Notes: a model not told the origin generated them from the sequence alone. A stretch of 64,000 nucleotides of DNA from a bacterium (GCA_037131105.1 JBAXRQ010000001.1:560589-624588), one strand, 5' to 3'; counted from the first letter of the stretch, positions 14,145-34,673 are shown. A program made the numbers and translations.

Positions 14145-17072
14145 CTATTCCTCCCGTGAGTCAGCCGGATCCGGCCCCCACATAGACATCCCCTCGTTCG
14201 CAGTTTGTTCGGGAAGGGCGAGAGGGTCAGGGGACTCAGCTGCGGCTTTTTGGGCAAGCTCCTTGGCCAGGCGTTTTTGCTCAAGCTTCTCCAAAACCTC
14301 TTTTTCAGGCTCGCCTAAGAACCACTTCAGTCCTCCTTTTTGCGACACCTCCTTGTATACCCACTCATCCAAGACCTTCAAGGGCTTTTCTTTGCGTGGC
14401 GGCTTGGGAACTCCCCCACCCTCCTGCTCCATGGGAACTACGAACGGCTCAGCTACTTCAAGCTGAATAATCTCGTTCGGTTTTTGTTCGTATACTACGG
14501 GAGCCGGTATCGGCTCGGTAACCATAGGTAATGGCACAGGCGTCTCTAGGACGGCTACTGGAGCAGGCGCAAGTGTAGCCACTGGTACAGGCTGAGGAAC
14601 AGGTAGAGGCTGCGGAGCAGGCGCTACCGGCTGCACTGGAGGACTCATCGGAGTCCGGATCGCTAATGACTCCCCGCTCTTCAAGATCTCCTGTGCCACG
14701 TTCTTAGCCTCTTCCACCTCACGCTTCTTCTTGTATCCTGCCGTCTCGTCAATAACCAGCTCCACTTCCTCACGAGGACGAGCGTAACGTTCACGAGAAT
14801 ACTGCATGACCAAATCACGGTTCGACTCCCCTATCTCCTTAGGCATCATGGTCTGGGCCGAGAAGGCAGGAGTGGCGATGCCATCCACCAGCAGCTTCAC
14901 ATAGACATGCCCTCTCTGCAGGTTCACCAGGTCGTTGGCATCAAAGACGGGAGCAAACTCTTTGACCAGCACGTCAGCGTCAGGAGCACCTATCCGAAAG
15001 CTTACCATAGTACCAACATTACCAATGACAGCGTCACGCACAGCCTCTGACATCTGGGCGATGTACTGGTGAGCGATGGTTAGTCCCAGGCCGTACTTAC
15101 GGGCTTCAGAAAGAATGGTAGCAAATGACTCGGTGGCAAAGTTCTGGAACTCATCCACGTACAGGAAGCAGTCAGGCCGCTCAGCCGCAGTTACATTTGC
15201 CCGGCTCATAGCCGCAAGCTGCACCTTGGTGATCATCATGGCACCGAGCAGGGCCATGTTGTCTTCACCTATCTTACCCTTTGACAGGTTTACCACCAGG
15301 ATCTTCTGTTCATCCATGATCTGACGTATATCGATGGACGAGGTAGGCTGCCCAACGATATTTCGCATGGTTGAGGTGGACAGGAACTGGCCGACCTTGT
15401 TCAGGATGGATCCAGGAGCTTCCGCCCGCTGTTGTGGCGACATACTCAGCCACTCATTACTCCAGAAGTCCTTAATAACTACATCCTTGATCTGGGCCAC
15501 TATGGACTCCCGGAAGGCATTGTCAGTGAGCATGCGGGGAATACCCAGCATAGTGGGGTTATCTGAGTCCAAGAGAGCGAGTACTGTATTTCTGAGAATG
15601 TATTCAAGGCGAGGACCCCAGGAATCAGAGTAGAGCTTCTTAAAGATGCCGATGAAGCCCGACGCCACCATCCCCTTGTACTCATCCGCTACCTTCTCAA
15701 GAGGGTTGAAGGAGATCGGGAAGTCACGGTCAGAGGGATCAAAGACCACCACGTCCTTTACCCGGTGAGGCGGCACGCTGTCGATGATCTTGTCGGCCAG
15801 TTCTCCGTGCGGATCCACTACCACAACTCCCCTGCCCTCCATCACATCATCGATGATCATATTCTCAAGCAGGGTGGATTTACCCACACCAGACTTACCA
15901 ATGACGTAGATATGGCGCTTTCGGTCGTCTAGCTTGATACCGAACTCTCGTGAGCTGTTACGGAAGTCGGTCTTACCAAGAACGGTAAGTTCCTTAGGCT
16001 CCACCTCATCCTTGAACGGTAGGTTGAACGGAGCTTCGCCCTTCTTAGAGCCGGCCCAGGAGATAGCCGAGGTCTCTACCGCCTTGGTTGGGAAATGGTA
16101 CAGAGAAGCCAGCTCCTCAATGTTCAGGACGCCGCCCTTCTCCTCAAACTGACGGGTGATGTACTTCGTCCAGGAAGCATGGTCATCGACCAGAGTCGAA
16201 ACCCCCCTGAAGCCGTTGAGGTTGGTGGTGTTGTACTGCTTCAGGGCTGCCAGCATAGCCTGGGAGCGTGACTTGGCGGTCTGGGCCTCGTTGGCGATTA
16301 CAACCAGCCTAAATAAGCTTTCAAAACCTAACTTGGTGATCTTGGTCTCAATCCCCTTCAAAGCGGCCTCTTCAGGCGCAGAAAGCTTCGGGGGCTCCTT
16401 AGGACCGCTTCCGGCCGCGTCCCCTACCCCGGATCCCGGCACCACCATCTCCTGCAGTATGCGGGCACCGAAACGGACCACCTTGGCAGCCGCACCTCCC
16501 CCTCCTCCCATGTCTCCGCTTCGTATGGCCTTTACGTGGGCTACTCCGCGATTCTGCCATTCGTCCCCTACCGGCCGCACTACGATTTGCAGCCAGACCT
16601 GTTCACCCTCATTTAGACCAGCCATTACGGCGGTAATACTTGCCAACGGGTCCACCCCTTCGGAAGCCGTTACTGTCTTGATAGGATACACATCCTCCTT
16701 GGTAAGCTCAATCTTGGTAGTACCCACGTGCTTGCCCTCAAGCTCTACCTGCTTGGTATAGTCAGTCACCTGATGGATCTGCAGGTCGGGATACTGGGCA
16801 TAGAGCTGTCCTTCGATGAAGTCCCTCAAATGTAAAGGCGTGAATACATAAAAGATGATCGAGTCCTTCACCGCCACTATCTCAAAGCTTACGTGCTCCT
16901 GGACAATGGGATCCTCTCGGTAGATGCCGTGCAGCGCTGAGAAGAACTGCTCAGCACTGGCGGCAGTCTTCTCGTTTTCCTTGGCCACTTGGATCGCCAG
17001 CACCACAAAGGTCTGGGACTCCAACCACTCTGCTCGGCGTTTCAGATCATTCGGCTTGGACCATAGGGCCAT
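14145..17072 (-). CDS. FtsK/HerA/VirD4-superfamily ATPase A (975 aa): novel ~390-aa N-terminal domain, Walker A GKSGVGKST, VVVDPHGE, Walker B YVDEFQNF, Pro-rich C-terminal tail
   Basis: Motif order matches type IV coupling-protein/HerA ATPases; paralogous to 17655-20270. Confidence 0.7.
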   Translation of the reverse strand: MALWSKPNDLKRRAEWLESQTFVVLAIQVAKENEKTAASAEQFFSALHGIYREDPIVQEHVSFEIVAVKDSIIFYVFTPLHLRDFIEGQLYAQYPDLQIHQVTDYTKQVELEGKHVGTTKIELTKEDVYPIKTVTASEGVDPLASITAVMAGLNEGEQVWLQIVVRPVGDEWQNRGVAHVKAIRSGDMGGGGGAAAKVVRFGARILQEMVVPGSGVGDAAGSGPKEPPKLSAPEEAALKGIETKITKLGFESLFRLVVIANEAQTAKSRSQAMLAALKQYNTTNLNGFRGVSTLVDDHASWTKYITRQFEEKGGVLNIEELASLYHFPTKAVETSAISWAGSKKGEAPFNLPFKDEVEPKELTVLGKTDFRNSSREFGIKLDDRKRHIYVIGKSGVGKSTLLENMIIDDVMEGRGVVVVDPHGELADKIIDSVPPHRVKDVVVFDPSDRDFPISFNPLEKVADEYKGMVASGFIGIFKKLYSDSWGPRLEYILRNTVLALLDSDNPTMLGIPRMLTDNAFRESIVAQIKDVVIKDFWSNEWLSMSPQQRAEAPGSILNKVGQFLSTSTMRNIVGQPTSSIDIRQIMDEQKILVVNLSKGKIGEDNMALLGAMMITKVQLAAMSRANVTAAERPDCFLYVDEFQNFATESFATILSEARKYGLGLTIAHQYIAQMSEAVRDAVIGNVGTMVSFRIGAPDADVLVKEFAPVFDANDLVNLQRGHVYVKLLVDGIATPAFSAQTMMPKEIGESNRDLVMQYSRERYARPREEVELVIDETAGYKKKREVEEAKNVAQEILKSGESLAIRTPMSPPVQPVAPAPQPLPVPQPVPVATLAPAPVAVLETPVPLPMVTEPIPAPVVYEQKPNEIIQLEVAEPFVVPMEQEGGGVPKPPRKEKPLKVLDEWVYKEVSQKGGLKWFLGEPEKEVLEKLEQKRLAKELAQKAAAESPDPLALPEQTANEGMSMWGPDPADSREE

Positions 17073-17085
17073 GGTTTGGGTTCGA

Positions 17086-17613
17086 TTAAAGCATATTGTC
17101 GATCACCGCCCAACGGGAGGGATGATCGGCGGGAATAAGTAGCATAACCTTGTCTCCCAAATGAAGATTAAAGAGTGACATGTAATAAGTCACTGATGCG
17201 GTCAGGATGCTATAGGTGTTGCCGTCCTCAGCATCCACCACATAGTGGTTACCCTCGGCTCGCAGTACACCTGGAATAGTCGAACGCTCGATGGGGCCAA
17301 GCTGCTTGTAGAAGAACTTGCCATCCGGAGTGATATAGAGCTTAAGCGGATCGCCTTCGACTAGCTTGCTTTTGGAGGCGTAGTTTGAGGAAACCTGGTA
17401 TCCCTTGCCGTTATAGTCAACCATCCTCTCGCCGTCAAAGATACCCTCGATCCCGTCGTCAGTACCAGACTGCTCCTGCAGCGCATAGGTAGGCTGGGCA
17501 GCATAACCAGCCGCTCCTACCCCTAATAGCTGCCGCAGATCACGTATATCCTGCTCGATCCGCTCTAACAGTCGCGCCGCCCGCTCAGCATTTCCATCGG
17601 TATTTGTTTCCAT
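17086..17613 (-). CDS. Hypothetical protein (175 aa) between the two ATPase genes
   Basis: Tightly packed within the operon (13-nt and 41-nt gaps); AAAGG SD. Confidence 0.5.
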   Translation of the reverse strand: METNTDGNAERAARLLERIEQDIRDLRQLLGVGAAGYAAQPTYALQEQSGTDDGIEGIFDGERMVDYNGKGYQVSSNYASKSKLVEGDPLKLYITPDGKFFYKQLGPIERSTIPGVLRAEGNHYVVDAEDGNTYSILTASVTYYMSLFNLHLGDKVMLLIPADHPSRWAVIDNML

Positions 17614-17654: not shown

Positions 17655-20270
17655 TCAGACCTGGGGAGCAAGCTGAGGGGCAGGAGCTGGGGCCGGTTCA
17701 GGAGTGGCGGCGGGTACCGGTGCGAGTGGCGTTGAAGCCGTTGGAGCCACAGGAGCGACGGGTGCTGAAAGCCCCTTTGAGCGTAGGCGGATCTCGGACT
17801 CCACCAGCTCGCGGTCACGGCCGTACTTGAGGCGGGACAGCTGCTTGATCGCCTCCCCTACCTGGACGTTCTCGTTAGGGTCCGGCGGATAAGCAGCGGC
17901 ATTGAACGGCTTGGACGGACTTCCGTCGATAAGCATCTTGATGTAGTAGTTGTACTTTTCGGTATTGACCATGTCCTCTATCTCCAGTGGATCAAACTCC
18001 TTCTTAAAGAACTCAGCATCCGAGGCACCGATACGCCAGGTAAGCATAGTACCGACGTTACCGATGACGGCATTTCTCGTATCTTCATCAAGCTGTTCGA
18101 CAAACTGGTTGGTGATATTAAGCGACAGCTGGTACTTACGAGCTTCGGAGAGAATGGTGGCAAAAGTCTTGGACGTGAAGTTCTGGAACTCATCCACATA
18201 GAGATAAAATGGTACTCGTTCTGCCTCGGACTGGTTCTGACGTGAGAATGCGGCGATCTGGATCTTACCTGAGATGATCATACCGAGCAGCTGGGCGTTG
18301 ATATCTCCAAGCAGACCCTTCGGCAAGGTCACCAGGAGGATCTTCTTGCTGTCCATGGCCTCCCGAAAGTTGAAGGCGCTGTTCTGCTGGCCGATGATCG
18401 GCCGCATGATGTCATTGGTGGTGAACTGGGTGAGCTTGGAGGTGATGTACGGCACGATATTAGCAAGAGCCGCCTCTCCCCCAGCCTTTTCAGCCTCGTT
18501 CACCCAGAAGTCGATGACCACCTGGTTGCGGGTCTTGGAGAGTTTCAGCTTGCGGAACTCGGCGTCGGCCAGTACCTTTGGGATCTCCATAAGGGTGCTT
18601 CCCGAGTCAGGGTCGTCCATAACCAGCATCATGGCATTTCGCATGTACTGCTCAAACATAGGTCCTCCGGTGGCCTTCAGGTCATACAGCTTGTCGAAGA
18701 TGGAGATCATCTCGTTGATGACCATGGTCTTCTGCTCTGGATAGCGGGGGTCGAACTCAAGTAGGTTGAAGGCCATGGGGCGGGCGGTATCGGAAGGGTC
18801 AAACAGGATGACGTCCTCGGCCCGCTCCTTGGGAATGTGCTTGAGTATCCACTCGACGGCGTCACCGTTAGGATCCATGTAGCAGACCCCGTGCCCAGCC
18901 CGGATGTCCTGCAGTATCATGTTCTGGAACATAACCGTCTTACCTACACCAGTCTTTCCTATCATGTAGAAGTGGCGAGACCGGTCAGGATAGTTCATAT
19001 AGACCGGGATCTCAGTGCCACGGAAGGCGCTGTAGCCCAGCAATAGACCCGACTTCGGGATGTTGTTAGGAGGTGAAAGCCGGCGGGCACCCAGCCAGTG
19101 GATGTTTGGCGTGTCCAGTACCCGGTTTGGGAAATGGAAGATACTGGCCAGCTCCTCTGTGTTCAAGATAAAGCTAGGCTGGTCCTTGGAGAATAGACGC
19201 AGGATGTAGTCATTACGCAGATGCTGGCTACCGACTGCCGCGGTCTTAAACCCGTTCGACTCAGGCGCCTGATACTGAGAGAAAGCTGAGAGCATGGTCT
19301 GGACGTGGTTCTTAGCCTCAATCTCGGTAGCCGCCCAGGCCACGCAGCGGATCTGTACTTTGAAGCCTACCTTGCTGCCCTTCTCCACCATCAGCTTGGC
19401 TTGCTGCTCCTGCATGGCGGTAAGCCTGACATTAGCCTGGGTGGTGTTACCCGCCTCGTTATGAGTAGGTGCATCAGTCTTCTGGCTGGCCACTGCGGAC
19501 TGACCAACTTCCTTGGCAATATTTCCTACCTTCTGCATATTCGTGGTATGGAAGGATTTGCCCTGCTGCACGTTATGGAGCGCCTCCTCTATCTTATGCT
19601 GCCAGGACTGGTCGGTGGGCTGCACCAGGATCTGAATAGCGCCTCTCCCCTGCCCCATCTTGGATAGTGAGTTGGTCAAGCCATTCAGCGGATCATTCTC
19701 CAGGTTCTTATACGTTCTAATAGGAAATATTTGTTGCTTCATCAGCTGGATACCACCAGAGGCTGTAGCACCACCCTCCTTGATAAAGACGTCGTAATCC
19801 GTAGCCTCCTCGATCTGGGCAGCCGGGTATTGGCCATGGATCTGCCGCTCCACCTGATCCACCGTGTCAGAGGGACAGATAACATAAAAGAAAATCTCAC
19901 CATCATGGGCGGCTAGCTCAAAGGAAAAAGTCGGCTGGCCCTTCAGAAACGTATCAAACCAACTCGAGTCATAGAAATGATGCAGCGATGTGAATACCGC
20001 TTCCATGACGCCCATAATCTCCTTGGGATCACGCCGGTCGTCAGGATTGGCGAGCTGTTTAGGCATTGTCACCCGCAGAGCCCGTGTCTTCAAGGCGCGG
20101 TCTTGGTGCTGCTTGGTACGACGCATATAAATGTAGCGTGCCGCCACAGCCAAGCCGATAAGTAGAACAGCCAGTAGAAAGTCAGTCACTAAAAGTGCCG
20201 CCGTGTTGGTAGTACTGCTACCGCCGTCGGTGTAACTGGTGTCGTAGGTGTAGTCGGTGGTGTCTGCCAT
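17655..20270 (-). CDS. FtsK/HerA/VirD4-superfamily ATPase B (871 aa): N-terminal transmembrane helix, same novel domain, Walker A GKTGVGKT, DPNGD, Walker B YVDEFQNF, Pro/Ala-rich tail
   Basis: Clear paralog of ATPase A (shared blocks EELAS.FHFP, FATILSEARKY, AVIGNVGTM). Confidence 0.7.
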   Translation of the reverse strand: MADTTDYTYDTSYTDGGSSTTNTAALLVTDFLLAVLLIGLAVAARYIYMRRTKQHQDRALKTRALRVTMPKQLANPDDRRDPKEIMGVMEAVFTSLHHFYDSSWFDTFLKGQPTFSFELAAHDGEIFFYVICPSDTVDQVERQIHGQYPAAQIEEATDYDVFIKEGGATASGGIQLMKQQIFPIRTYKNLENDPLNGLTNSLSKMGQGRGAIQILVQPTDQSWQHKIEEALHNVQQGKSFHTTNMQKVGNIAKEVGQSAVASQKTDAPTHNEAGNTTQANVRLTAMQEQQAKLMVEKGSKVGFKVQIRCVAWAATEIEAKNHVQTMLSAFSQYQAPESNGFKTAAVGSQHLRNDYILRLFSKDQPSFILNTEELASIFHFPNRVLDTPNIHWLGARRLSPPNNIPKSGLLLGYSAFRGTEIPVYMNYPDRSRHFYMIGKTGVGKTVMFQNMILQDIRAGHGVCYMDPNGDAVEWILKHIPKERAEDVILFDPSDTARPMAFNLLEFDPRYPEQKTMVINEMISIFDKLYDLKATGGPMFEQYMRNAMMLVMDDPDSGSTLMEIPKVLADAEFRKLKLSKTRNQVVIDFWVNEAEKAGGEAALANIVPYITSKLTQFTTNDIMRPIIGQQNSAFNFREAMDSKKILLVTLPKGLLGDINAQLLGMIISGKIQIAAFSRQNQSEAERVPFYLYVDEFQNFTSKTFATILSEARKYQLSLNITNQFVEQLDEDTRNAVIGNVGTMLTWRIGASDAEFFKKEFDPLEIEDMVNTEKYNYYIKMLIDGSPSKPFNAAAYPPDPNENVQVGEAIKQLSRLKYGRDRELVESEIRLRSKGLSAPVAPVAPTASTPLAPVPAATPEPAPAPAPQLAPQV

Positions 20271-20287: not shown

Positions 20288-20665
20288 TTAGGAAGTGGGA
20301 GTATCAGGTCCTGGATTCGCATTCTGGGACGCAAGCAACCGCAGGTTCGCCATGAACTGCGCCCTCTGCGAAAGGGGCATCTTCTCAAAATCCTCCGGAA
20401 GTTCGTGCAGGACAGAAACGACTCCAGGAGAACCTGCCCCGGTGTCACTGCCAGCTACGGCCTCAGGACCAGAATCAGGTGCGAGGGTTACCAGCGCAGT
20501 AGCACCCTCTACCGTACTATTAACCCCATCGACAGGACCCTCAACCTGCGCCGGAATCTGTTCTCCACCTGAAAGCACGGCGGCTTCGGGATTCTGCTGG
20601 TCAATCTGTTGAGTCTGGGCATCACGTAGCGACTCGGGAGTATTTGAACCTGGAAGCTCAGGCAT
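20288..20665 (-). CDS. Hypothetical small acidic protein (125 aa), probably disordered
   Basis: ORF fills the gap between the giant membrane protein and ATPase B; no SD. Confidence 0.35.
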   Translation of the reverse strand: MPELPGSNTPESLRDAQTQQIDQQNPEAAVLSGGEQIPAQVEGPVDGVNSTVEGATALVTLAPDSGPEAVAGSDTGAGSPGVVSVLHELPEDFEKMPLSQRAQFMANLRLLASQNANPGPDTPTS

Positions 20666-20721: not shown

Positions 20722-23700
20722 CTATGAAGACCCACCCGGGAGCAGTACATCCTGAAGAGCCTCGTTATTGAGAATATTGGCCATGGCGGCTCCGATCAGG
20801 AGAATGCGGTTTTCCAGTGGGCTTCCGTCTGGGAGTTTTTTGTATCTTTCTCTTGTCGGGGCACTGAGTTGCCTTAGGCGAGTCAGCGCCTCCTTACGGC
20901 CGTCTCCTTCGGTCAGGTTAAGAAGCTCCATGACGCTTTCCCTATCCGCAAAGAAGTCCTCTAGGGCGGCATCATCCGCTGGCATCCCGTCCCCACCATT
21001 AATAAGCTCTTCTAGGTTCTTCTTTATACGATCAGAAAATGCCGGATATTTCTTTTCAGCTTCTGGAGGTGCGGCGCTTCTCAGCCTCAGCTGCAGCCTC
21101 CGCAAGCTATCCATAATAGAAGATGGTCGACTTTCTTCAGTAGAAGGAGTCACAGTCACGGCTGGCGGTTCTTCAGCTGGCGCTGCTTCGACTGTACCCG
21201 GATCAGCAACAGGCGGAGCCTCCAAATCACCCTCGTCCGCTACTGCTTCGATAGGGGCGCCTACGGGCTCCGCAGCAGGAGCCTCAGTCCCTGCACCAGC
21301 ATCCGGATCACCGGGAGCAGCTGGCGGCTCAGTAGTAACGGTCTCTGTACGACCCGCTACGGGATCACTATTATTGGCCTCCTTCTGCATGAACTGACCC
21401 TGTCTCCTTATGGTAAGGTCAAAGGAACGGACCGGCATGCAGCCTTCGGTACCATATGACCGGTCGTTGGCTTCGTTAAAGAGATATCTGCTCCAGTTCT
21501 TCACGAGTGGTACGAAATGCAGGGAAAGGGCCGGACGCCATGGACCCCGGGTATCAGTCGTAGCCGGATCCATAAGGGCCTTATAGGACTGCCTCAGAGC
21601 CTCTTGCCTCTCTAGGCTCGACAGCACCTCGTCATCAACCGCCATGAAGAGCTTCACATTTCCATTGAAGCGATCGTTGAAATCCTCAGGTGCGTTCTCA
21701 CCGAAACGCTTGGCACTACCCTGGTAGTCCCAGATCGCTTCCATTTTACCCCTCACCATGGCAGGTGACTGCTCAGGAGTAAAGGCAAGAAGAAATCTCT
21801 GCTCGTCTTTCGGCCAATCACTCAGGGTTTCAGCTGCTAACCTGAACGCGTCCCTGTGCAGCGGATTCCTAAGCTCGTCCCTGAAGTTCTTGGCCCCCGG
21901 ACCCGCGGCAGACCTGAGGCCATTCTTGTATGCCTCCCAGGAACCAAGCTCGGAGATACTGCCCACCCCATCATCCCCGGCACCGCCATCCTCGATGATC
22001 AGCTCAGTTTTTGTTGAGCGTAGCTTATTTTGAATGTAATACTCTTCAAGCTCGCTGACCTCGTATTTTATGCCGCCGTACCCCACGCTCTCCTCATTCC
22101 CCGCAAAGGGACCTTCGATGTTCAATGGCCGAAGGATTGCGGTGTCGGGGTCAGTCTCATAGTCAGCGTTATTGGGTCCGGACACCAAGTACACGTAATC
22201 AAACATAACAAGGTTTCCCTGTGCCGGCGTATCCATCTGGAAGACCGTTCCAGGCTTCTTCATGAGCTCCTGAAATTCGACCCGACGAGTTTCGCGCTCT
22301 GCAGGTGACAGTCCTGGCTCTGGCCGAACAGGAGCCTCTCTGCCTGCCGGAGGTCGTTCGGTAGGAGGTACTGGTGGTGCAGGTGGCACCGGAGCCTGAG
22401 GTCCCTCAGGCCCTCCGGGACGCGGAGGAGTGGGCGGTACTGGTGGAGCAGGTGGCACAGAAGCCGGCGGTGTCGCCGTTGCTGCCTCGGGCGTAGCAGG
22501 AGGAGCAGGCACAACAGACCCTTCTGGCTGCACTTGGCTGGCATTTCCTACCCCGCCTAGTGAAGTCAGCTCCGACTTGCCGCGAGCAGCGTTCAGGCGG
22601 GTCCTATTGGCCTCACCCATGGTGGCAATACCCTCGGACATGGCAGCGCCCGCCCCGAAGAAAGCCGTAAGCGGAACCGTCTGGGCAAGACTGTCCTTCA
22701 GAAAGGCACCGAAGATCTGCAGGCCACCGACCTCTGAATTATGGAAAAGCTGCAGGCCACGGCCAGTAGTTGCGTCATACATCGCCCCTCCCAGCCGTCT
22801 AGCGGCGTCCACCGCGTCTGTAGTTGCACCATTTCCGGGATATATGGCATGCAAGGTGTTCGGCGACACGTTTATCATGTCCTTCCTCTCAAGGACGAAC
22901 CTGGCCACTTTGTCGTGGGCCCCCTGTATCATCTTGGTCAGATGTCCCCTGGTTGAGTCGTGAGCCACGCTCATGCCGTCCAGCCGCACACCGTCGGCAC
23001 CGTACAGTGAGTTCTGCAGCCCATGCCAGTGATTGATGATGTTGTAGAGGCCACCGGTCAGGCTTCCAGCTGCGCCGCCGATCATTCCCGCCTTATTGAT
23101 CTGCTTGTCAGCCTCTTTCCTGGCCTTCATGAACTCACCGAACTTGGCCAGCTTCTCGTCGGCAGGTGGCTCACCAATATTCTTCAGACGGCTGTCGGTC
23201 GAGTCACGCATGCTGCGGGCAACAAAGCGCAGTAGGTCGGCCTTCTGCTCCTGAGTAGCCTCAGGTGCCGCTTCAGGATTCTCAGTAGTATGAATATAGC
23301 GCTGGGCATACTCAGTTGCCTTGCCGACATTCTCAGTCAGCTCCTGGAAGGCCGACCCTCCCAGAGTAGTGCCGTCTTCTTGCTCCTGGTAGAGCTTCTT
23401 CTCCTTGAAGTGGCGCATGATGCTGCGCCCGGCCATGGCACCGGCAAAGCTCAAGGCCGCCAGAGGTACAGCGGTTCCCATGGAAATGGTAGCCAGTCCT
23501 AACGCTGAAAGCCCCATGCCCACGCCGAGGCCGCCGGCAGTGGTCTTGGCGGTCCGCACTCCATCCTTTATGACCCGCTTCACATAACTTGGCTGTTTGA
23601 GGTTGACGTTTATTTCGGACTGAGGATCAATACCTCCCTGCGAGGAGAAGCTTTCGATATCCACACCGAACTGGTCGCAGGCCTCCTGCAGATTTTTGAA

Positions 23701-24240
23701 GCCTAGGCGGTGCACATACATCTCGCCGGCGATAGAGTCCCAGCCGTACTGCACCAGATCCCTAGCAATGAACAGCAGATCCTCCTCGTCAAGCTCCTCT
23801 CGGCGCTTCAGCTTTTCCTTGAAGCGAGTAAGAATAAGTCGACGGACAAGCTGGCGATGGGCGTCGGCGTCCAGCATTTCAGGCTCAGCCGGTACCTCGA
23901 TCGCCGGGGCAGGAGCTTCTTCAGCCGGAGGAGTTTCAACCAGAGGGGCAATGGCAGGCTCGGCCACAGGGTCAGCGGCAGGGACCTCAGGTTCAGGATC
24001 GGAAGCAGGGACTGGTTCCGGAGCGATAGGCTGCTCTTCACCGTTCAAGTAGAGCTCCTTCAATCGGGCCAGGTCATAGCGCTTATACTCACGCTCACGC
24101 TGGGCCAGCAGCCGTTTCTGCTGCTTGGGCTTATGGACGTTCTCCTCCATAAACTCATTCTTGTACTCGTTAACCCTGTCGGCGAGAGTGCCGGCATTGG
24201 TACGTGCGTTCTGCCATCCTTCCCCCCATGCGACAGCCAT
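20722..24240 (-). CDS. Giant membrane protein (1172 aa) with Gly/Ala-rich transmembrane hairpins, Pro-rich linkers and a C-terminal globular region; possible VirB6/TrbL-like channel or scaffold
   Basis: Hydrophobic G/A-rich segments (GGLGVGMGLSALGLATISMGTAVPLAALSFAGAMAG; GMIGGAAGSLTGGLY; VPLTAFFGAGAAMSEG); start 2 nt from the stop of the upstream ORF. Confidence 0.6.
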   Translation of the reverse strand: MAVAWGEGWQNARTNAGTLADRVNEYKNEFMEENVHKPKQQKRLLAQREREYKRYDLARLKELYLNGEEQPIAPEPVPASDPEPEVPAADPVAEPAIAPLVETPPAEEAPAPAIEVPAEPEMLDADAHRQLVRRLILTRFKEKLKRREELDEEDLLFIARDLVQYGWDSIAGEMYVHRLGFKNLQEACDQFGVDIESFSSQGGIDPQSEINVNLKQPSYVKRVIKDGVRTAKTTAGGLGVGMGLSALGLATISMGTAVPLAALSFAGAMAGRSIMRHFKEKKLYQEQEDGTTLGGSAFQELTENVGKATEYAQRYIHTTENPEAAPEATQEQKADLLRFVARSMRDSTDSRLKNIGEPPADEKLAKFGEFMKARKEADKQINKAGMIGGAAGSLTGGLYNIINHWHGLQNSLYGADGVRLDGMSVAHDSTRGHLTKMIQGAHDKVARFVLERKDMINVSPNTLHAIYPGNGATTDAVDAARRLGGAMYDATTGRGLQLFHNSEVGGLQIFGAFLKDSLAQTVPLTAFFGAGAAMSEGIATMGEANRTRLNAARGKSELTSLGGVGNASQVQPEGSVVPAPPATPEAATATPPASVPPAPPVPPTPPRPGGPEGPQAPVPPAPPVPPTERPPAGREAPVRPEPGLSPAERETRRVEFQELMKKPGTVFQMDTPAQGNLVMFDYVYLVSGPNNADYETDPDTAILRPLNIEGPFAGNEESVGYGGIKYEVSELEEYYIQNKLRSTKTELIIEDGGAGDDGVGSISELGSWEAYKNGLRSAAGPGAKNFRDELRNPLHRDAFRLAAETLSDWPKDEQRFLLAFTPEQSPAMVRGKMEAIWDYQGSAKRFGENAPEDFNDRFNGNVKLFMAVDDEVLSSLERQEALRQSYKALMDPATTDTRGPWRPALSLHFVPLVKNWSRYLFNEANDRSYGTEGCMPVRSFDLTIRRQGQFMQKEANNSDPVAGRTETVTTEPPAAPGDPDAGAGTEAPAAEPVGAPIEAVADEGDLEAPPVADPGTVEAAPAEEPPAVTVTPSTEESRPSSIMDSLRRLQLRLRSAAPPEAEKKYPAFSDRIKKNLEELINGGDGMPADDAALEDFFADRESVMELLNLTEGDGRKEALTRLRQLSAPTRERYKKLPDGSPLENRILLIGAAMANILNNEALQDVLLPGGSS

Positions 24241-24242
24241 AC

Positions 24243-24590
24243 TCAGGCCTCCTGTGGGAGGGCAGTTACGGCGATATCCGGGTCAATAGCGGCCTTGAAG
24301 GTAGCGGCCAGCTCAAATCGGTAGCGCATAGCCTCCTCAGTGATAAGGGCGGCCAGGTCTATCCCCTGCGCCTCGATGTAAGGAATCATGTCGTCGGCGG
24401 AAAGCTCGGAGAAATGATGGCGCTGGTCTTCGGGAAGCATCTCGTAGACGGTGAGATATACCCGTCCCTGGACAGTCTGATTCATGGTCTTGAGCAGCTC
24501 TTCCTTCTCATCCTCAGGCAAGCCCTGCAGACCAAGGAGGGTGAAGAAATCCTCTTCGAGAATATCCTGGAGAGTCAGAGAAAACGACAT
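24243..24590 (-). CDS. Hypothetical small acidic protein (116 aa; start set at MSFSL)
   Basis: ORF coupled to the downstream giant gene; no recognisable motif. Confidence 0.45.
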   Translation of the reverse strand: MSFSLTLQDILEEDFFTLLGLQGLPEDEKEELLKTMNQTVQGRVYLTVYEMLPEDQRHHFSELSADDMIPYIEAQGIDLAALITEEAMRYRFELAATFKAAIDPDIAVTALPQEA

Positions 24591-24710: not shown

Positions 24711-25766
24711 CTATGCTGTCGCTGGAGCTGCTGTGCCCGGAGGCGGCGTAGGAGCCGGCGTCGGGGCGGGAGTTGTGGTGGCCGGTGTGGCCGGGGTGCC
24801 AGTAGCTGGCGTCGCAGTCGCACCGGTTGTAGCCGGTGGTGCCGTGACGGTCGCTGTGGCCGGCTTCTTGAAAAGCCAGGCCAACGCAACCAGTATCAGG
24901 ATGCCGAGCCCTACCAGTCCCCAGTTTATCTGGATGACGCTGTTGACGCCGCTCCGGATGTCGCTGCCCTGGGCCTTGATCTCGGTTGCCTGCTTCTGGA
25001 TGTCGGTCGCCTGATCCCCGATAGTGGCCAGTGAGGTCAGGAAGTCTTTGTCGTCAACCTCCTGCTTGCTGGCTACTCCGTTGATCGTGGTGACAACCGT
25101 TGCCAGTGTGGCAGTGTTGGCGCTCGTTGAGGCCTGAACCGCCTTCACGCCAGTGGCAATCGCGTCGATCTTCTTACCCAGGCCGTCGAACTTGGCGTCG
25201 GTCCGCTTTTCGGAAGCGGCGACCAGGCCTTTTACGGCGACTAGTGTCACGCCAGACTTGCTCACCCTTCCACCAGTTGCCTTGCGGCTTGCGGCGTGGT
25301 GACGGACAGATCCACCGCTGCGGTGGCGGCGAACACCCCCACCGTGATGGCGGTGATGACGGACCGGAGCAGCAGGGGCAGCCGCGGGTGCGGCGGCCGA
25401 ATGCGTGTCCGGCACGACCTCGGGGGCCGGTTTGGTCTCCGGGTCAGGAGCGGGATCTGGCTCGGTGGCAATGCCACTGTCGCCGTCTTCCACGTCATTG
25501 CCTTCGTCCTCTCCAACCCCGTATTCGGGAGCAGGGGCGGCTTCGGGCAATCCTGCCTGCGGGGCAGGCGGGGCCAGTGCCAGCCGTTCTCCACTCTGGC
25601 CTTCAGGGGCCTTCGGGGCGGAAACGGTTGTTTCAAAGCCCGGGTTCGGCGCCGGGGCGCCTATGCTGGCCTGACTTCTTCCAGTCGAGCTGGTGGACGT
25701 CATATGGACCGCCACACCGAGTACCATGCCGATCGCCAATGCGACGATCACAATTCGATTTTTCAT
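24711..25766 (-). CDS. Membrane protein (351 aa): signal/transmembrane N-terminus, acidic Pro/Ala region, His/Arg-rich patch, coiled segment, C-terminal transmembrane helix and Pro/Thr-rich tail
   Basis: Start MKNRIVIVALAIGMVLG is preceded by AGGAGG; it is the first gene of the operon, behind a consensus promoter. Confidence 0.55.
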   Translation of the reverse strand: MKNRIVIVALAIGMVLGVAVHMTSTSSTGRSQASIGAPAPNPGFETTVSAPKAPEGQSGERLALAPPAPQAGLPEAAPAPEYGVGEDEGNDVEDGDSGIATEPDPAPDPETKPAPEVVPDTHSAAAPAAAPAAPVRHHRHHGGGVRRHRSGGSVRHHAASRKATGGRVSKSGVTLVAVKGLVAASEKRTDAKFDGLGKKIDAIATGVKAVQASTSANTATLATVVTTINGVASKQEVDDKDFLTSLATIGDQATDIQKQATEIKAQGSDIRSGVNSVIQINWGLVGLGILILVALAWLFKKPATATVTAPPATTGATATPATGTPATPATTTPAPTPAPTPPPGTAAPATA

Positions 25767-28324: not shown

Positions 28325-29458
28325 CTAACCACTCTTCTTCCGATACGTAGCTAGACGTACCAGCCAGTAACCCACAAACAACACCAAAGCCGCTGCCAAC
28401 AGTGCCAGCAGAACCGGCCAGCTCAGGCCGACAAGCACTGCCAGGGCGGCCCACCATCTCCTTCGGTTCGGAGTCGCACTCCCCTCAACTGCAACTGCCG
28501 TCATCCCAATGAACAGAATAACCGACAGGCCAAGGAGGTAGTTTGACAAAATGTTCAGCCAAACCCGGATCACCACGTTCGGTACGTTGGTCAGGGTCAC
28601 CGATGGCTGGCCCGTATAACCGACATCGCTCCATTCGCGGGACCTTCCCTGTGAGACCATGCCGATCTTCTTCCAAACCAGATCGTTGGTCTGCTGCCAG
28701 GTCCAGTACGAGACCGCGTTATACCCGCGCGTGCGCTTGCCGAACTCCAGCACTTCGCTGGCCTCAGACAAACCATACGTCTGACCAAGGGGCACTATCG
28801 GCTTCTTGATGCCGTTCTCATGCTCCCAGGCCTTCCACTCTCGGTAGGTCCAGTTGACGGTCTCTTTGACGGACCTCCCCATCGTCCTCCAATACATCTG
28901 GGGCTCAATGAAGTCAGTACCGCCTACCAGGACCTGGTAGGGAAGCGCTCGATGCTTGGAAGGAATGGCATAGGGTGCGAATCCGAGCAGCTTCTGGGGA
29001 CACTTAGTCGTCCTGTAGTCAGAAACTTCACTGACAAGCTGCTCAGTCTCCCCCCACTTTGGTTTGGACTCCATCGGCGTCTCCGTGTTGTACACGTAGC
29101 CATCGACATAGTCGCGGGACAGCCAGTCGCAGATCAGGTGGGCCTCCTCATGCGGATGGTTTGCATGGTTGAAGCCCCAGACGAAAACCTTTATCCCTGC
29201 GGACTGCATGGCCCTGGCAATCTCGGGCACCCGGTCAGCCTCCACGTAAAGCTGGATGCCGTCGTGCACCTTCAGGTAGACATGACCGATGCCGGCCGCC
29301 TTGGCCTGGTTGACCATCTCTGCGGGCGTACCGCACTTGCTGGGCTGCCCGATCCAGATACCGACCCCGATCTGCCTGAGCTGGTCGGATACCGGCGCTG
29401 CCTGGACCATCGAAGTCCAAGCACATACAAACAGTGCTACTATCAAAGAACGTTTCAC
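28325..29458 (-). CDS. Secreted/membrane-anchored putative glycoside hydrolase (TIM-barrel, GH25-lysozyme-like pattern) with a C-terminal transmembrane anchor; start moved to the GTG giving signal peptide MKRSLIVALFVCAWTSMVQAAP
   Basis: SD GAGGGAGCAAGA-GTG and its own consensus promoter; GH25-like spacing of GI..G / AKAAGI..YLKVHDG / AGIKVFVWGFNH blocks; C-terminal hydrophobic stretch plus RKKSG. Confidence 0.5.
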   Translation of the reverse strand: MKRSLIVALFVCAWTSMVQAAPVSDQLRQIGVGIWIGQPSKCGTPAEMVNQAKAAGIGHVYLKVHDGIQLYVEADRVPEIARAMQSAGIKVFVWGFNHANHPHEEAHLICDWLSRDYVDGYVYNTETPMESKPKWGETEQLVSEVSDYRTTKCPQKLLGFAPYAIPSKHRALPYQVLVGGTDFIEPQMYWRTMGRSVKETVNWTYREWKAWEHENGIKKPIVPLGQTYGLSEASEVLEFGKRTRGYNAVSYWTWQQTNDLVWKKIGMVSQGRSREWSDVGYTGQPSVTLTNVPNVVIRVWLNILSNYLLGLSVILFIGMTAVAVEGSATPNRRRWWAALAVLVGLSWPVLLALLAAALVLFVGYWLVRLATYRKKSG

Positions 29459-29489
29459 TCTTGCTCCCTCTAAAATGAAGTGACGCCTT

Positions 29490-29518
29490 ACTATAGGCAG
29501 TTTATCGTCTTCTGTCAA
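29490..29518 (-). promoter_or_regulatory. Sigma70 promoter TTGACA-17-TATAGT for the glycoside-hydrolase-like gene
   Basis: Consensus -35 and near-consensus -10 with 17 nt spacing, immediately downstream of the rplA terminator. Confidence 0.65.
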
Positions 29519-32786: not shown

Positions 32787-34673
32787 TTACCGGATGTCCA
32801 GGTTCTCCAGGCTCTTCTTCAGGGCCTTCTTCAGCTTCAGGTAGCGAGCAAGTCCTGCACCTAGTCCAGAAGTGGTTCCTGCTAGTAGCAGGCCAGCTTC
32901 AGGGCCGGTCTTAGGCAACTGAGGCGGAACCGTGACAACTACGGGAGACGGACTTGGGGTCGGGCTATGCGTAGGAGTCGGGGTAGCGGTAGGAACTGGG
33001 GTCGGAGTAGGAGTCGGACTTGGGGTAGGCGTAGGTGTTGGCGTAGGCTTCGGGGTAGCTGTTGGCGTGGGGGTAGGGGTAGCCGTAGGCTTGGGAGTAG
33101 GAGTCGGGGTGGGCTTTGGCGTAGGTGTAGGCGTGGCCGTAGGGGTAGGCTTCGGAGTCGGGGTTGGGGTCGGCTTCGGGGTAGGAGTCGGAGTAGCCGT
33201 AGGTGTTGGGGCAGGCGTAGGAGTAGGAATGACACAGGCAGGCAGGATAGCCGTAGCAGTGTCGCTCTTCTCTCCGGTTCCGTTGGCCTTGATGAAGGCG
33301 GTGTTCACCGCAGTGGTCTGAGCCACGAGACAACGAACCTGAACCTTCAGGGTAATCGTCTTACCATGACCGGGGTCAAAGGTGGTCAGGATAATACCTC
33401 CCTTGAAGAAGGCGTCCTGTACCGGCTGAGACTGAACCGCGTTGTCGATGGTCAGACTGTTAGGCACATAGGTGGCACCGGTAGGCAGCACGTCACGCAG
33501 GGTAGGATTCACAGCGGTAGTGTTGCCAGTGTTACCGACCAAGATACGGTAGGTCAGGGTCTGGTTAGGGTTAATCAGTCCGATAGAGTCTACGTAGGCA
33601 CCGGTAGCGGGGTTCTGAACGTCCTTTACGACGGTCAGACCGCGGGTGCAGGAAATCAAGGTGGTAGCATCGTCAGAGGCCTTTACAGCGCCCTGGTATA
33701 CGATCTGAGCCTTGTCGACAACGGTTACGTCGGCACCACAGTTCGAAGGCGCAATGGCCTCAAACTGGATACGCTGGTATCCGCCGGTATGAGGCTCCAG
33801 GCTGGAGAACACATAGCCGCCGTTCACGATGGCATTACCCGAGATAGGGGTACCGTTCGTGTTGTTCTGGTTGGTCAAGAGAGCGTTGCCAGCATAGGTG
33901 AACCCAGCAGGCAGCACGTTCTTCAACGAGACATTGTTGGCAGTAGTATTACCGGTGTTCAGGATGGTCATACGATAGGCCACCTTGTCACCAGGAGCGA
34001 TGATAGCAGTAGCGGCATCGTACCAGATATCATAGCCGAGACTCATGTCACGGACCTCATTCTTCACGCTGAATGAGGTTACCGGAGTACCGTACCGGGT
34101 AACGGTATAGGATACCGGATTGGTGACAGCGCTTACCCCGTCAAACGAAGAGGTAGCGGTATTGGTATAGGTAGTCTGGCCAACCGAGAACTGGTCGTCA
34201 GAAGCAAGGCGAGCCTTGAACTGAAGATACAGGGCAGCGTTTGGCTGAGGAGCCATGTCAACGAAGGCCCAGCCAAGGTCATGACCGTTGTTCTTAATGC
34301 TCATGTAGCTATCCGAAAGCGGATAGTCATGGTCCTTGTTATCGCTGCCCTTTACCCGTACGAACGAGCTGTTAGGGGTATAGGTCAGACGAGAGTCAAG
34401 GTGCTCTACGATCTTCGGGTGGGCGCCGTTAGCGTCACCGGTGTTCTCAAGGAGTACGCGGAACGCCAGCGAGTCACCAGGAGTAGCCTGGGCACTGGAA
34501 GCATACTCGGACTGCCCGCCGGACAGCTGTACGGCAAGCCTGGTGTTGATCTGGGGACCAGAGGTCGCAATGACCGACTGCATACCCATGAAGCCAAGGG
34601 CCAGGGCGGAAGCAGCCACCACAAAGCGGGTGCCGAATCGTCCCATGGATGTAAGGAGTGAACTTTGTGTCAT
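32787..34673 (-). CDS. Cell-wall-anchored surface protein: signal peptide, DUF11-type repeat domains, Pro/Thr-rich stalk, LPKTG sortase motif plus hydrophobic segment plus basic tail
   Basis: C-terminal [31 protein letters not shown] is a canonical LPXTG sorting signal; ~100-aa (PTPT/PKPT)n linker. Confidence 0.7.
32932..33235 (-). repeat. Degenerate tandem DNA repeats (GGNGTNGGN-type units) encoding the Pro/Thr-rich stalk of the LPXTG protein
   Basis: Visible periodic gtaggngtnggngt units on the plus strand; explains the Gly/Val shadow ORFs on the opposite strand. Confidence 0.6.

Follow-up and report, generated by a model that had tools for sequence, protein, structure and literature searches.

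BIG, an orphan 1172-residue protein with glycine-zipper segments, and its putative partnership with twin coupling-type ATPases in a Patescibacteria-like lineage

Background

The Patescibacteria, which live attached to other cells, account for a large part of bacterial diversity. The 64,000-nucleotide stretch considered here (JBAXRQ010000001.1:560589-624588 of GCA_037131105.1; hereafter the window, with positions counted from its first letter) comes from ultra-small bacteria of a rare Patescibacteria (Candidate Phyla Radiation, CPR)-like lineage. The longest open reading frame (ORF) recovered by an ORF scan of the window encodes a protein of 1172 residues, which we call BIG, in an operon with the genes for two ATPases. 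A preliminary description of the window had already recognized BIG as its largest gene and linked it to the adjacent ATPase system. This raises the question of what kind of protein BIG is, and whether its position betrays a functional connection with the ATPases. We found that BIG founds a tiny, previously undescribed family, with four members among 1.84 billion representative proteins, all of them encoded at the same position of the same ATPase operon, and we tentatively interpret it as a membrane-anchored accessory or scaffold partner of twin coupling-type ATPases.

Identification of the BIG family

BIG is encoded on the minus strand by an ATG-to-stop ORF at 20722..24240, with the stop codon at 20722-24. 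An AGGAGG Shine-Dalgarno (SD) sequence lies 7 nt 5' of its ATG, which is itself 2 nt past the stop codon of an upstream gene for a small DUF5663-like protein, in agreement with the 2-nt gap and the translational coupling noted in the preliminary description. Codon-usage log-likelihoods, trained on 18 well-annotated genes of the window and scored per 60-codon block, favored frame 0 of BIG over both other frames in all blocks, with the signal dropping toward zero only within the Pro-rich linkers. Furthermore, the identical 1172-residue product is called in two assemblies, namely on a 949-kb contig of an NCBI metagenome-assembled genome (MAG; WCO52_03165) and on a 391-kb ENA contig. Given the ORF, the SD sequence, the frame-0 signal and the same call on two assemblies, BIG is a real gene rather than a read-through artefact. 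Repeat scans recovered no tandem or dispersed repeats pointing to a diversity-generating retroelement or phase variation, and promoter and terminator scans remained at chance level.

An exhaustive phmmer search of the 1.84 billion (1.84e9) representative (cluster) proteins recovered, besides BIG itself, only three relatives:

P0002, 659 aa, phmmer E 7.8e-7
P0003, 1039 aa, phmmer E 5.3e-4
P0004, 856 aa, phmmer E 9.3e-4

All three align in this search only to BIG residues ~124-486, and pairwise BLASTP comparisons with BIG (E 1e-11 to 1e-15) showed 21-25% identity only over residues ~124-490. The sole part of BIG with relatives is thus a single N-terminal module:

22771..23874, minus strand: conserved N-terminal module (N-module), BIG aa ~123-490

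An alignment of the four proteins revealed a shared helical motif, RDLVxxGxDS...GFKNxQEA, and a glycine-zipper hairpin conserved in all four, along with a KExKLY motif, a second Gly-zipper helix that follows basic residues, and a strand of the WHFVxExKDI type. In contrast, BIG residues 650-1172 had no relative among the searched representatives, and the C-terminal halves of the four orthologues (parts of about 150 to about 530 residues, as cut for comparison) share no similarity with each other except for a marginal match between P0003 and P0004 (E about 0.02).

The preliminary description had seen no recognizable motif in BIG, and searches of Pfam (E<=0.01), NCBIfam, PHROGs, PADLOC and the sequences in the PDB likewise detected no domain in it. 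Relaxing the Pfam threshold to E<=10 returned only noise, without TrbL/VirB6 being listed, and sequence and profile searches against the PDB yielded nothing significant. Similarly, tblastn searches with BIG against 50,697 phage records and 72,556 plasmid records produced no match, nor did scans of metagenome and viral contigs with the BIG protein and the N-module alignment. Word-indexed searches with the whole of BIG returned only BIG itself, and those with residues 125-565 and 645-955 returned nothing; the latter are weak negatives, because the sub-ranges did not recover the parent protein itself.

Three apparent resemblances were considered and set aside. Residues ~353-448 (23035-23182 in the window) recall the HA1/HA2 junction and fusion peptide of influenza haemagglutinin (Pfam E 0.05-0.07; PDB E about 0.9), a weak, non-significant and composition-driven likeness of a Gly-rich amphipathic segment. 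The RDLVxxGxDS...GFKNxQEA motif looks by eye like sigma-70 region 4 or a LuxR-type helix-turn-helix, and was dropped as unsupported by Pfam and PDB profiles. A LysM-like 'VxKGxSL ... IHPGAxI' similarity to the large proteins of other Patescibacteria (see below), also seen by eye, found no support from a hidden Markov model (HMM) of that domain.

Conserved genomic context and evolutionary rates

The genes on the minus strand of the window run in the order TGT, a 351-aa protein with two transmembrane (TM) helices, the DUF5663-like protein, BIG, a 125-aa protein, ATPase 1, a 175-aa protein and ATPase 2, after which SecDF follows on the opposite strand. Their features are as follows (pI, isoelectric point):

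24711..25766, minus strand: 351-aa protein, first gene after TGT, with a TM helix near either terminus and stretches rich in Pro and Ala; sequence not conserved
24243..24590, minus strand: DUF5663-like small acidic protein, 115 aa, pI 4.1, with a weak Pfam DUF5663 match
20722..24240, minus strand: BIG, 1172-aa orphan protein
20288..20665, minus strand: low-complexity protein of 125 aa, acidic (pI 4.05), encoded between BIG and ATPase 1
17655..20270, minus strand: ATPase 1, 871 aa, with one N-terminal TM helix, DUF8128 and a TraD/TrwB/VirD4-like P-loop domain
17086..17613, minus strand: conserved 175-aa protein between the ATPases, without Pfam or PDB match
14145..17072, minus strand: ATPase 2, 975 aa, without TM helix, with DUF8128 and a coupling-protein-like P-loop domain

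The loci encoding P0002, P0003 and P0004 (L082, L083 and L084) display the same order of DUF5663-like protein, BIG, ~125-aa protein, ATPase 1 and ~175-aa protein, with ATPase 2 following wherever the contig reaches that far. In those with long enough contigs the string sits between TGT and SecDF. Hence, the link to the adjacent ATPase system holds for three out of three relatives. The genes of the string are separated by gaps of merely 2-56 nt.

The rates at which these genes have diverged differ strikingly. Relative to the window, the syntenic loci preserve TGT at 64-68% identity, ATPase 1 at 67-69%, the 175-aa protein at 61-70% and ATPase 2 at 63-67%, with the DUF5663-like protein at 36-41%. 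BIG, as noted above, stands at 21-25% even in its alignable part, and the 125-aa protein keeps its position with essentially no sequence identity. With TGT, both ATPases and the 175-aa protein at 61-70% identity, BIG and the 125-aa gene are thus the hypervariable exceptions in a chromosomal operon that is otherwise well conserved.

With respect to the 125-aa protein, we noted that its end, '...PEDFEKMPLSQRAQFMANL', resembles by eye the '...ESYRKMPPRLRQKFSKEG' of ~150-aa proteins encoded directly upstream of ATPase 1 homologues in other Patescibacteria (loci L003, L008 and L016), where the ESYRKMPPRLRQKFSKEG motif belongs to one subfamily of such proteins. Its only BLAST match to the L082 counterpart spans 12 residues (E 0.02). 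It may be a truncated positional orthologue of the ~150-aa proteins.

The two coupling-type ATPases

Both ATPases have intact Walker A and B motifs and are paralogues at 36% identity. TrwB_AAD_bind scores 23.6 and 35.8 bits in the two proteins (Pfam cut-off 20.5), and T4SS-DNA_transf 39 bits in ATPase 2 (cut-off 20.1). ATPase 1 additionally matches Pfam TraG-D_C above its cut-off and NCBIfam TraD over part of its length, and ATPase 2 matches the NCBIfam VirD4-like CD1115 family over part of its length and, more weakly, TrwB (E=4e-4) and DotL in the PDB. These profiles indicate that both are coupling-protein-like (VirD4/TrwB/TraD-type) rather than VirB4 proteins. They lack the two-TM N-terminal anchor usual in type IV coupling proteins (T4CPs), with one TM helix in ATPase 1 and none in ATPase 2, and carry the additional DUF8128. 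No virB4, virB3, virB6 or virB8 was detected among the ORFs scanned in the window.

Such proteins are widespread in the phylum: 5,713 VirD4-type homologues have been counted in 2,918 Patescibacteria genomes, about two per genome, of which 148 lie near virB4, leading the authors to suggest possible exaptation (Quinonero-Coronel et al. 2025, PMC12102498). The two ATPases of the window belong to the class of orphan Patescibacteria T4CP homologues delineated there. The parts of that study considered here analyze virB4 neighborhoods and do not describe the operon partners reported here, namely the DUF5663, large Gly-hairpin, 125-aa and 175-aa proteins. Unlike the homologues in that survey, BIG itself is no ATPase.

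As separate observations, both ATPases match the PHROG family phrog_5156 (function not assigned) across almost all of their length (E 2e-90 and 4e-88) and the PADLOC model mad8 (E 1e-14 to 7e-21). These matches may reflect Patescibacteria fragments in viral collections, or related ATPases in phages and defence systems.

Sequence features and membrane segments of BIG

The regions of BIG were delineated as follows, with window coordinates for the principal ones:

aa 1-65: basic, charged N-terminus without signal peptide
aa 66-122: acidic Pro/Ala/Glu linker
aa 123-200: helical region
aa 201-232: basic stretch
aa 233-275 (23416..23544, minus strand): Gly/Ala-rich hydrophobic hairpin with GxxxG-type zippers, Lys/Arg on both flanks, then RHFKEKK
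aa 276-383: charged helical spacer
aa 384-402 (23035..23091, minus strand): second glycine-zipper segment, AGMIGGAAGSLTGGLYNII, marginally hydrophobic
aa 403-504: region holding the conserved WHFVxExKDI-type strand
aa 505-545 (22606..22728, minus strand): third, weakly hydrophobic Gly/Ala-rich region without a convincing TM helix
aa ~565-645 (22306..22548, minus strand): Pro-rich linker; 31 Pro in aa 546-649
aa 650-1172 (20725..22293, minus strand): unique C-terminal half
aa 650-955: mixed region of ~300 aa
aa 956-1035: acidic Pro/Ala/Glu linker
aa 1036-1172: tail of ~137 aa

Thus, a charged stretch of ~230 residues without a signal peptide precedes the hairpin. The Pro-rich linker PAPPVPPTPPRPGGPEGPQAPVPPAPPVPP that had been reported is present, as is the MFDYVYLVSGPNNADYETDPD stretch. 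The ~450-aa C-terminal globular domain of the preliminary description fared less well: a C-terminal region does exist, but it splits into the ~300-aa region, the acidic linker and the ~137-aa tail, and a single-sequence AlphaFold2 model of residues 645-955 reached a predicted local distance difference test score (pLDDT) of only 35.8, rendering it unusable. A model of the N-module from the 4-sequence alignment was equally unusable (pLDDT 36.4).

BIG had also been described as a multi-transmembrane protein with three hydrophobic hairpins. Of these, only residues 233-275 make a convincing two-helix hydrophobic hairpin and reach the conventional hydropathy threshold (Kyte-Doolittle maximum 1.6), with residues 384-402 and 505-545 at about 1.0-1.1. 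On a crude scale, Hessa-type sums are +2.9 kcal/mol for the hairpin and +5.9 kcal/mol for segment 2, as against about -0.5 for the genuine TM helices of ATPase 1 and the upstream 351-aa protein, and the third segment fails even a lax Hessa-type threshold. Given these values, 'multi-transmembrane' overstates a protein whose single hairpin is marginally hydrophobic and whose other Gly-rich segments are weaker, and either side of the membrane is compatible with them as the location of the C-terminal half. Two of the segments show a glycine-zipper pattern: (G/A/S)xxx(G/A/S)xxx(G/A/S) motifs occur in uncharged hydrophobic stretches at residues 235-245 and 384-397, and their position is kept in the orthologues. 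Lys/Arg residues precede segment 2, with none after it, and an Arg-rich stretch follows the third segment.

Large glycine-hairpin proteins in other Patescibacteria

A genome scan with ATPase 1 recovered 80 loci at 44-52% identity (mostly 45-49%), nearly all in Patescibacteria MAGs, and phmmer, jackhmmer and HMM searches detected no BIG homologue in any of them. A homologue of DUF5663 lies 0.5-2.9 kb upstream of the ATPase in 23 of the 80, and a homologue of the 175-aa protein is present in 15, mostly downstream of the ATPase. Across the same loci, 64 ORFs directly upstream of the ATPase constitute one family of ~145-160 aa.

These loci further encode a different family of large proteins, which we termed fam35 (35 members, 647-1479 aa), and a member of it is situated just upstream of DUF5663 in 24 of the 56 loci whose upstream sequence extends over 5 kb or more. 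The fam35 proteins share the layout of BIG as well as its operon partners: their charged N-terminus lacks a signal peptide and leads to a Gly/Ala-rich hairpin with basic residues behind it, a helical spacer of ~60-100 aa separates this hairpin from another Gly-rich helix, and the C-terminal part varies. Unlike this layout, the sequences themselves are not significantly similar, as judged by phmmer, jackhmmer and family HMMs, and an HMM of the second domain of fam35 found no match in BIG. We regard fam35 as a recurring architectural partner of the ATPase that is possibly homologous to BIG.

Several fam35 proteins (in L009, L014, L018, L053 and others) share a domain of ~80 aa with the pattern LEVxKGSSLEGTLIKHL...EAGxxAHxMAxEYA...SLIHxGAxIxLxPDGK, for which Pfam has no match and which by eye recalls LysM. 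Many contigs with the ATPase operon bear the titles Bdellovibrionales, Gammaproteobacteria, Micavibrio or Bathyarchaeia (L014, L015, L018, L021, L029-L034, L058 and others); these are probably mis-binned or mislabelled Patescibacteria.

Functional implications

BIG is tied to the twin ATPases by its strict synteny with them, by the close spacing of the genes and by translational coupling, and of the explanations weighed here we regard 'scaffold', in a loose sense, as the best reading, to be held tentatively. The conserved N-module, comprising a small helical domain, the Lys/Arg-flanked glycine-zipper hairpin and the second glycine-zipper helix, would tether BIG, in a probably oligomeric state, to the cytoplasmic membrane beside the one TM helix that anchors ATPase 1. 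The C-terminal ~600 residues, which are not conserved and hold two Pro-rich spacers, the ~300-aa region and the ~137-aa tail, would then act as a platform for species-specific interactions with the molecules that the two ATPases move or bind. Membrane insertion, oligomerization, physical contact with the ATPases and the placement of the C-terminal half relative to the membrane are all features that we infer from sequence. Consistent with such a role are the 2-56-nt gaps of the string, the contrast in evolutionary rates, the conservation of the hairpin and glycine zippers, the fam35 arrangement in 24 of 56 loci, the intact Walker motifs and the published context of the T4CP homologues (PMC12102498).

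Several observations weigh against this interpretation. The hydrophobic segments of BIG are marginal (+1.6 to +5.9 kcal/mol on the crude scale), so that stable insertion into the membrane is not assured, and neither AlphaFold2 run was usable. A core subunit of a machine does not normally drift to 21-25% identity while its ATPase partners stand at 68%. The parallel with fam35 is also imperfect: the gene order is inverted, with the fam35 protein preceding DUF5663 and BIG following it; the family HMM of fam35 gives BIG only 2.8 bits; and hhalign returned a probability of 0.5% with the single BIG sequence and of 47-54% with the 4-sequence profile, in the latter case over only 29 columns, segment 2 (residues 384-402) being the only stretch that it aligns. 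With an HMM of the BIG lineage, fam35 members ranked second and third among 5962 ORFs, with E-values of 0.7-0.9.

A precedent for the proposed arrangement might be sought in the DotL coupling complex of Legionella, in which the membrane-anchored DotM/IcmP and the small acidic adaptors IcmS/IcmW take part. By analogy, the operon likewise encodes a putative membrane-tethered protein and small acidic proteins together with a VirD4/DotL-type ATPase, in what would plausibly be an arrangement of adaptors or a scaffold. However, Pfam, NCBIfam and PDB searches revealed no sequence similarity of BIG or the DUF5663-like protein to any Dot/Icm component, BIG is three times larger and hypervariable, and there are no VirB4 or Dot/Icm channel genes nearby.

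Alternatively, BIG could be a large effector, the cargo of the coupling-type ATPases, with its marginally hydrophobic glycine-zipper segments avoiding the membrane of the producing cell and inserting into that of the host cell after delivery and the DUF5663-like protein acting as its chaperone or adaptor; we see this as possible, if rather unlikely. Coupling proteins are substrate receptors of type IV secretion systems (T4SSs), and the ATPases do match profiles of the TrwB/DotL/VirD4 type. The absence of a signal peptide, the small acidic gene (pI 4.1) placed directly upstream and translationally coupled, and segments far less hydrophobic than the resident TM helices of the operon would all suit a delivered protein, and non-homologous C-terminal halves are also encountered in polymorphic effectors. 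Indeed, the locus is reminiscent of LXG-type and other polymorphic toxin loci of the type VII secretion system (with FtsK-like ATPases), which combine a more conserved N-terminus, a non-homologous C-terminus, small helical acidic genes and an ATPase of the HerA/FtsK superfamily. Unlike those loci, it has no LXG, WXG or toxin domain, nor does Pfam or NCBIfam reveal any effector domain or translocation signal (BID, XVIPCD), and the C-termini are not conserved. The N-module, at 21-25% identity, is more poorly conserved than typical trafficking domains, and the 125-aa gene downstream is acidic and of low complexity in all four loci, and so does not resemble a cognate immunity protein with a fold of its own. 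The secretion channel genes virB4, virB6 and virB8 are also missing from the ORFs scanned in the 64-kb window.

A second possibility, which we judge distinctly unlikely, is that BIG is a cell-surface, adhesin-like protein for contact with the host, making three membrane passes, with a Pro-rich spacer across the wall and a C-terminal half that diversifies outside under the pressure of host interaction. If the hairpin and segment 2 were all TM, the number of passes would be odd and the C-terminus outside, in keeping with Lys/Arg residues preceding segment 2 only; the ~80-aa Pro-rich linker could span a wall; and the C-terminal half is extremely divergent. Against this, segment 2 (+5.9) is a very weak signal-anchor for exporting ~770 residues, an Arg-rich stretch follows the third segment, and Pfam detects no adhesin or cell-wall-binding domain. 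Moreover, since the cytoplasmic ATPases of the operon carry similar Pro-rich tails, these appear to be a compositional habit rather than a wall-spanning signature.

It is also improbable, in our estimate, that BIG is just a fast-drifting, largely disordered membrane-associated protein without functional coupling to its neighbors, its synteny being a legacy of a narrow lineage. With just four known members, all from a single lineage, shared ancestry alone could explain the synteny and BIG could be a coincidental neighbor; much of it is, moreover, low-complexity linker. However, the flanking proteins are only 61-70% identical, which indicates that these genomes are not very close, and yet the gene order, translational coupling and N-module persist. 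An analogous large Gly-hairpin protein also occurs beside the ATPase in many distant Patescibacteria.

The preliminary description had offered a VirB6/TrbL-like channel as one identity for BIG. A divergent, extended polytopic channel subunit of this type in a T4SS would fit the adjoining T4SS-related ATPases, and extended VirB6 proteins with large hydrophilic domains do exist (PMC12857230). Like the extended members of TrbL/VirB6 (PF04610), BIG is large, with hydrophobic segments, big poorly conserved hydrophilic extensions and T4SS-type ATPases as neighbors. Unlike them, it matches no TrbL/VirB6 profile at thresholds up to E=10, possesses no more than a single marginal hairpin and some weak segments where at least five strong TM helices would form the core, and lies in a window whose scanned ORFs include no virB4, virB3 or virB8. 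On these profile, TM-core and gene-context features we reject membership of this family, for which little likelihood is left. Finally, the idea that BIG is a prophage-encoded tape-measure protein or another structural protein of a phage, which the preliminary description had named as the finding that would refute its reading, merits practically no credence and is rejected. Its length, its Gly-rich hydrophobic segments and the phrog_5156 matches of the neighboring ATPases would suit such a protein, but PHROGs has no family for BIG, phage tblastn and viral contigs returned nothing, the neighbors are housekeeping genes (TGT, rplJ/L, rplA, pth, prfB-like, secDF) without a tail-gene module, and the locus is syntenic in four genomes.

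Other genes in the window

The remainder of the window is devoted to housekeeping functions, including ribosomal proteins, tRNA synthetases, topoisomerase, DprA and FtsW. Three further genes deserve mention:

28325-29518, minus strand: 377-397-aa protein without Pfam match, inserted into the ribosomal protein cluster between rplA and rplJ, with one hydrophobic helix at the N-terminus and several toward the C-terminus; no gene is found there in L082
29565-30494, minus strand: ribosomal protein L1, 309 aa (332 aa in L082), of which Pfam aligns only residues 190-300, to the C-terminal 60% of the profile
32787-34673, minus strand: 628-aa DUF11/CLIPPER-repeat protein, upstream of the release-factor gene and syntenic in L082 (1-2649), which has two such genes

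The partial alignment suggests that the L1 protein of the window has a long divergent N-terminal region or an insertion. The DUF11/CLIPPER-repeat protein is probably located on the cell surface.

Conclusion

The locus of BIG bears on a broader problem, as thousands of VirD4-like ATPase genes in Patescibacteria do not lie beside a T4SS and have no established function (PMC12102498). In at least one lineage, an operon of fixed composition joins two ATPases of this orphan type to a DUF5663-like protein, a pair of small acidic or β-rich proteins and an extremely fast-evolving, weakly membrane-anchored giant. BIG is a dark-matter protein, half of it without any relative, and its locus provides a defined gene set and hence a concrete handle on the orphan T4CP homologues, through which a role in host contact or in the transfer of protein or DNA becomes testable. 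More speculatively, and with low expectation that it will prove right in full, we propose that Patescibacteria may possess a VirB4-independent translocation module of their own, in which DUF8128 coupling-type ATPases and a DUF5663 adaptor would act with giant glycine-zipper proteins that serve as an oligomeric conduit or are injected into the host membrane. BIG would then be the fastest-evolving, host-facing element of such a module in a previously unsampled lineage.

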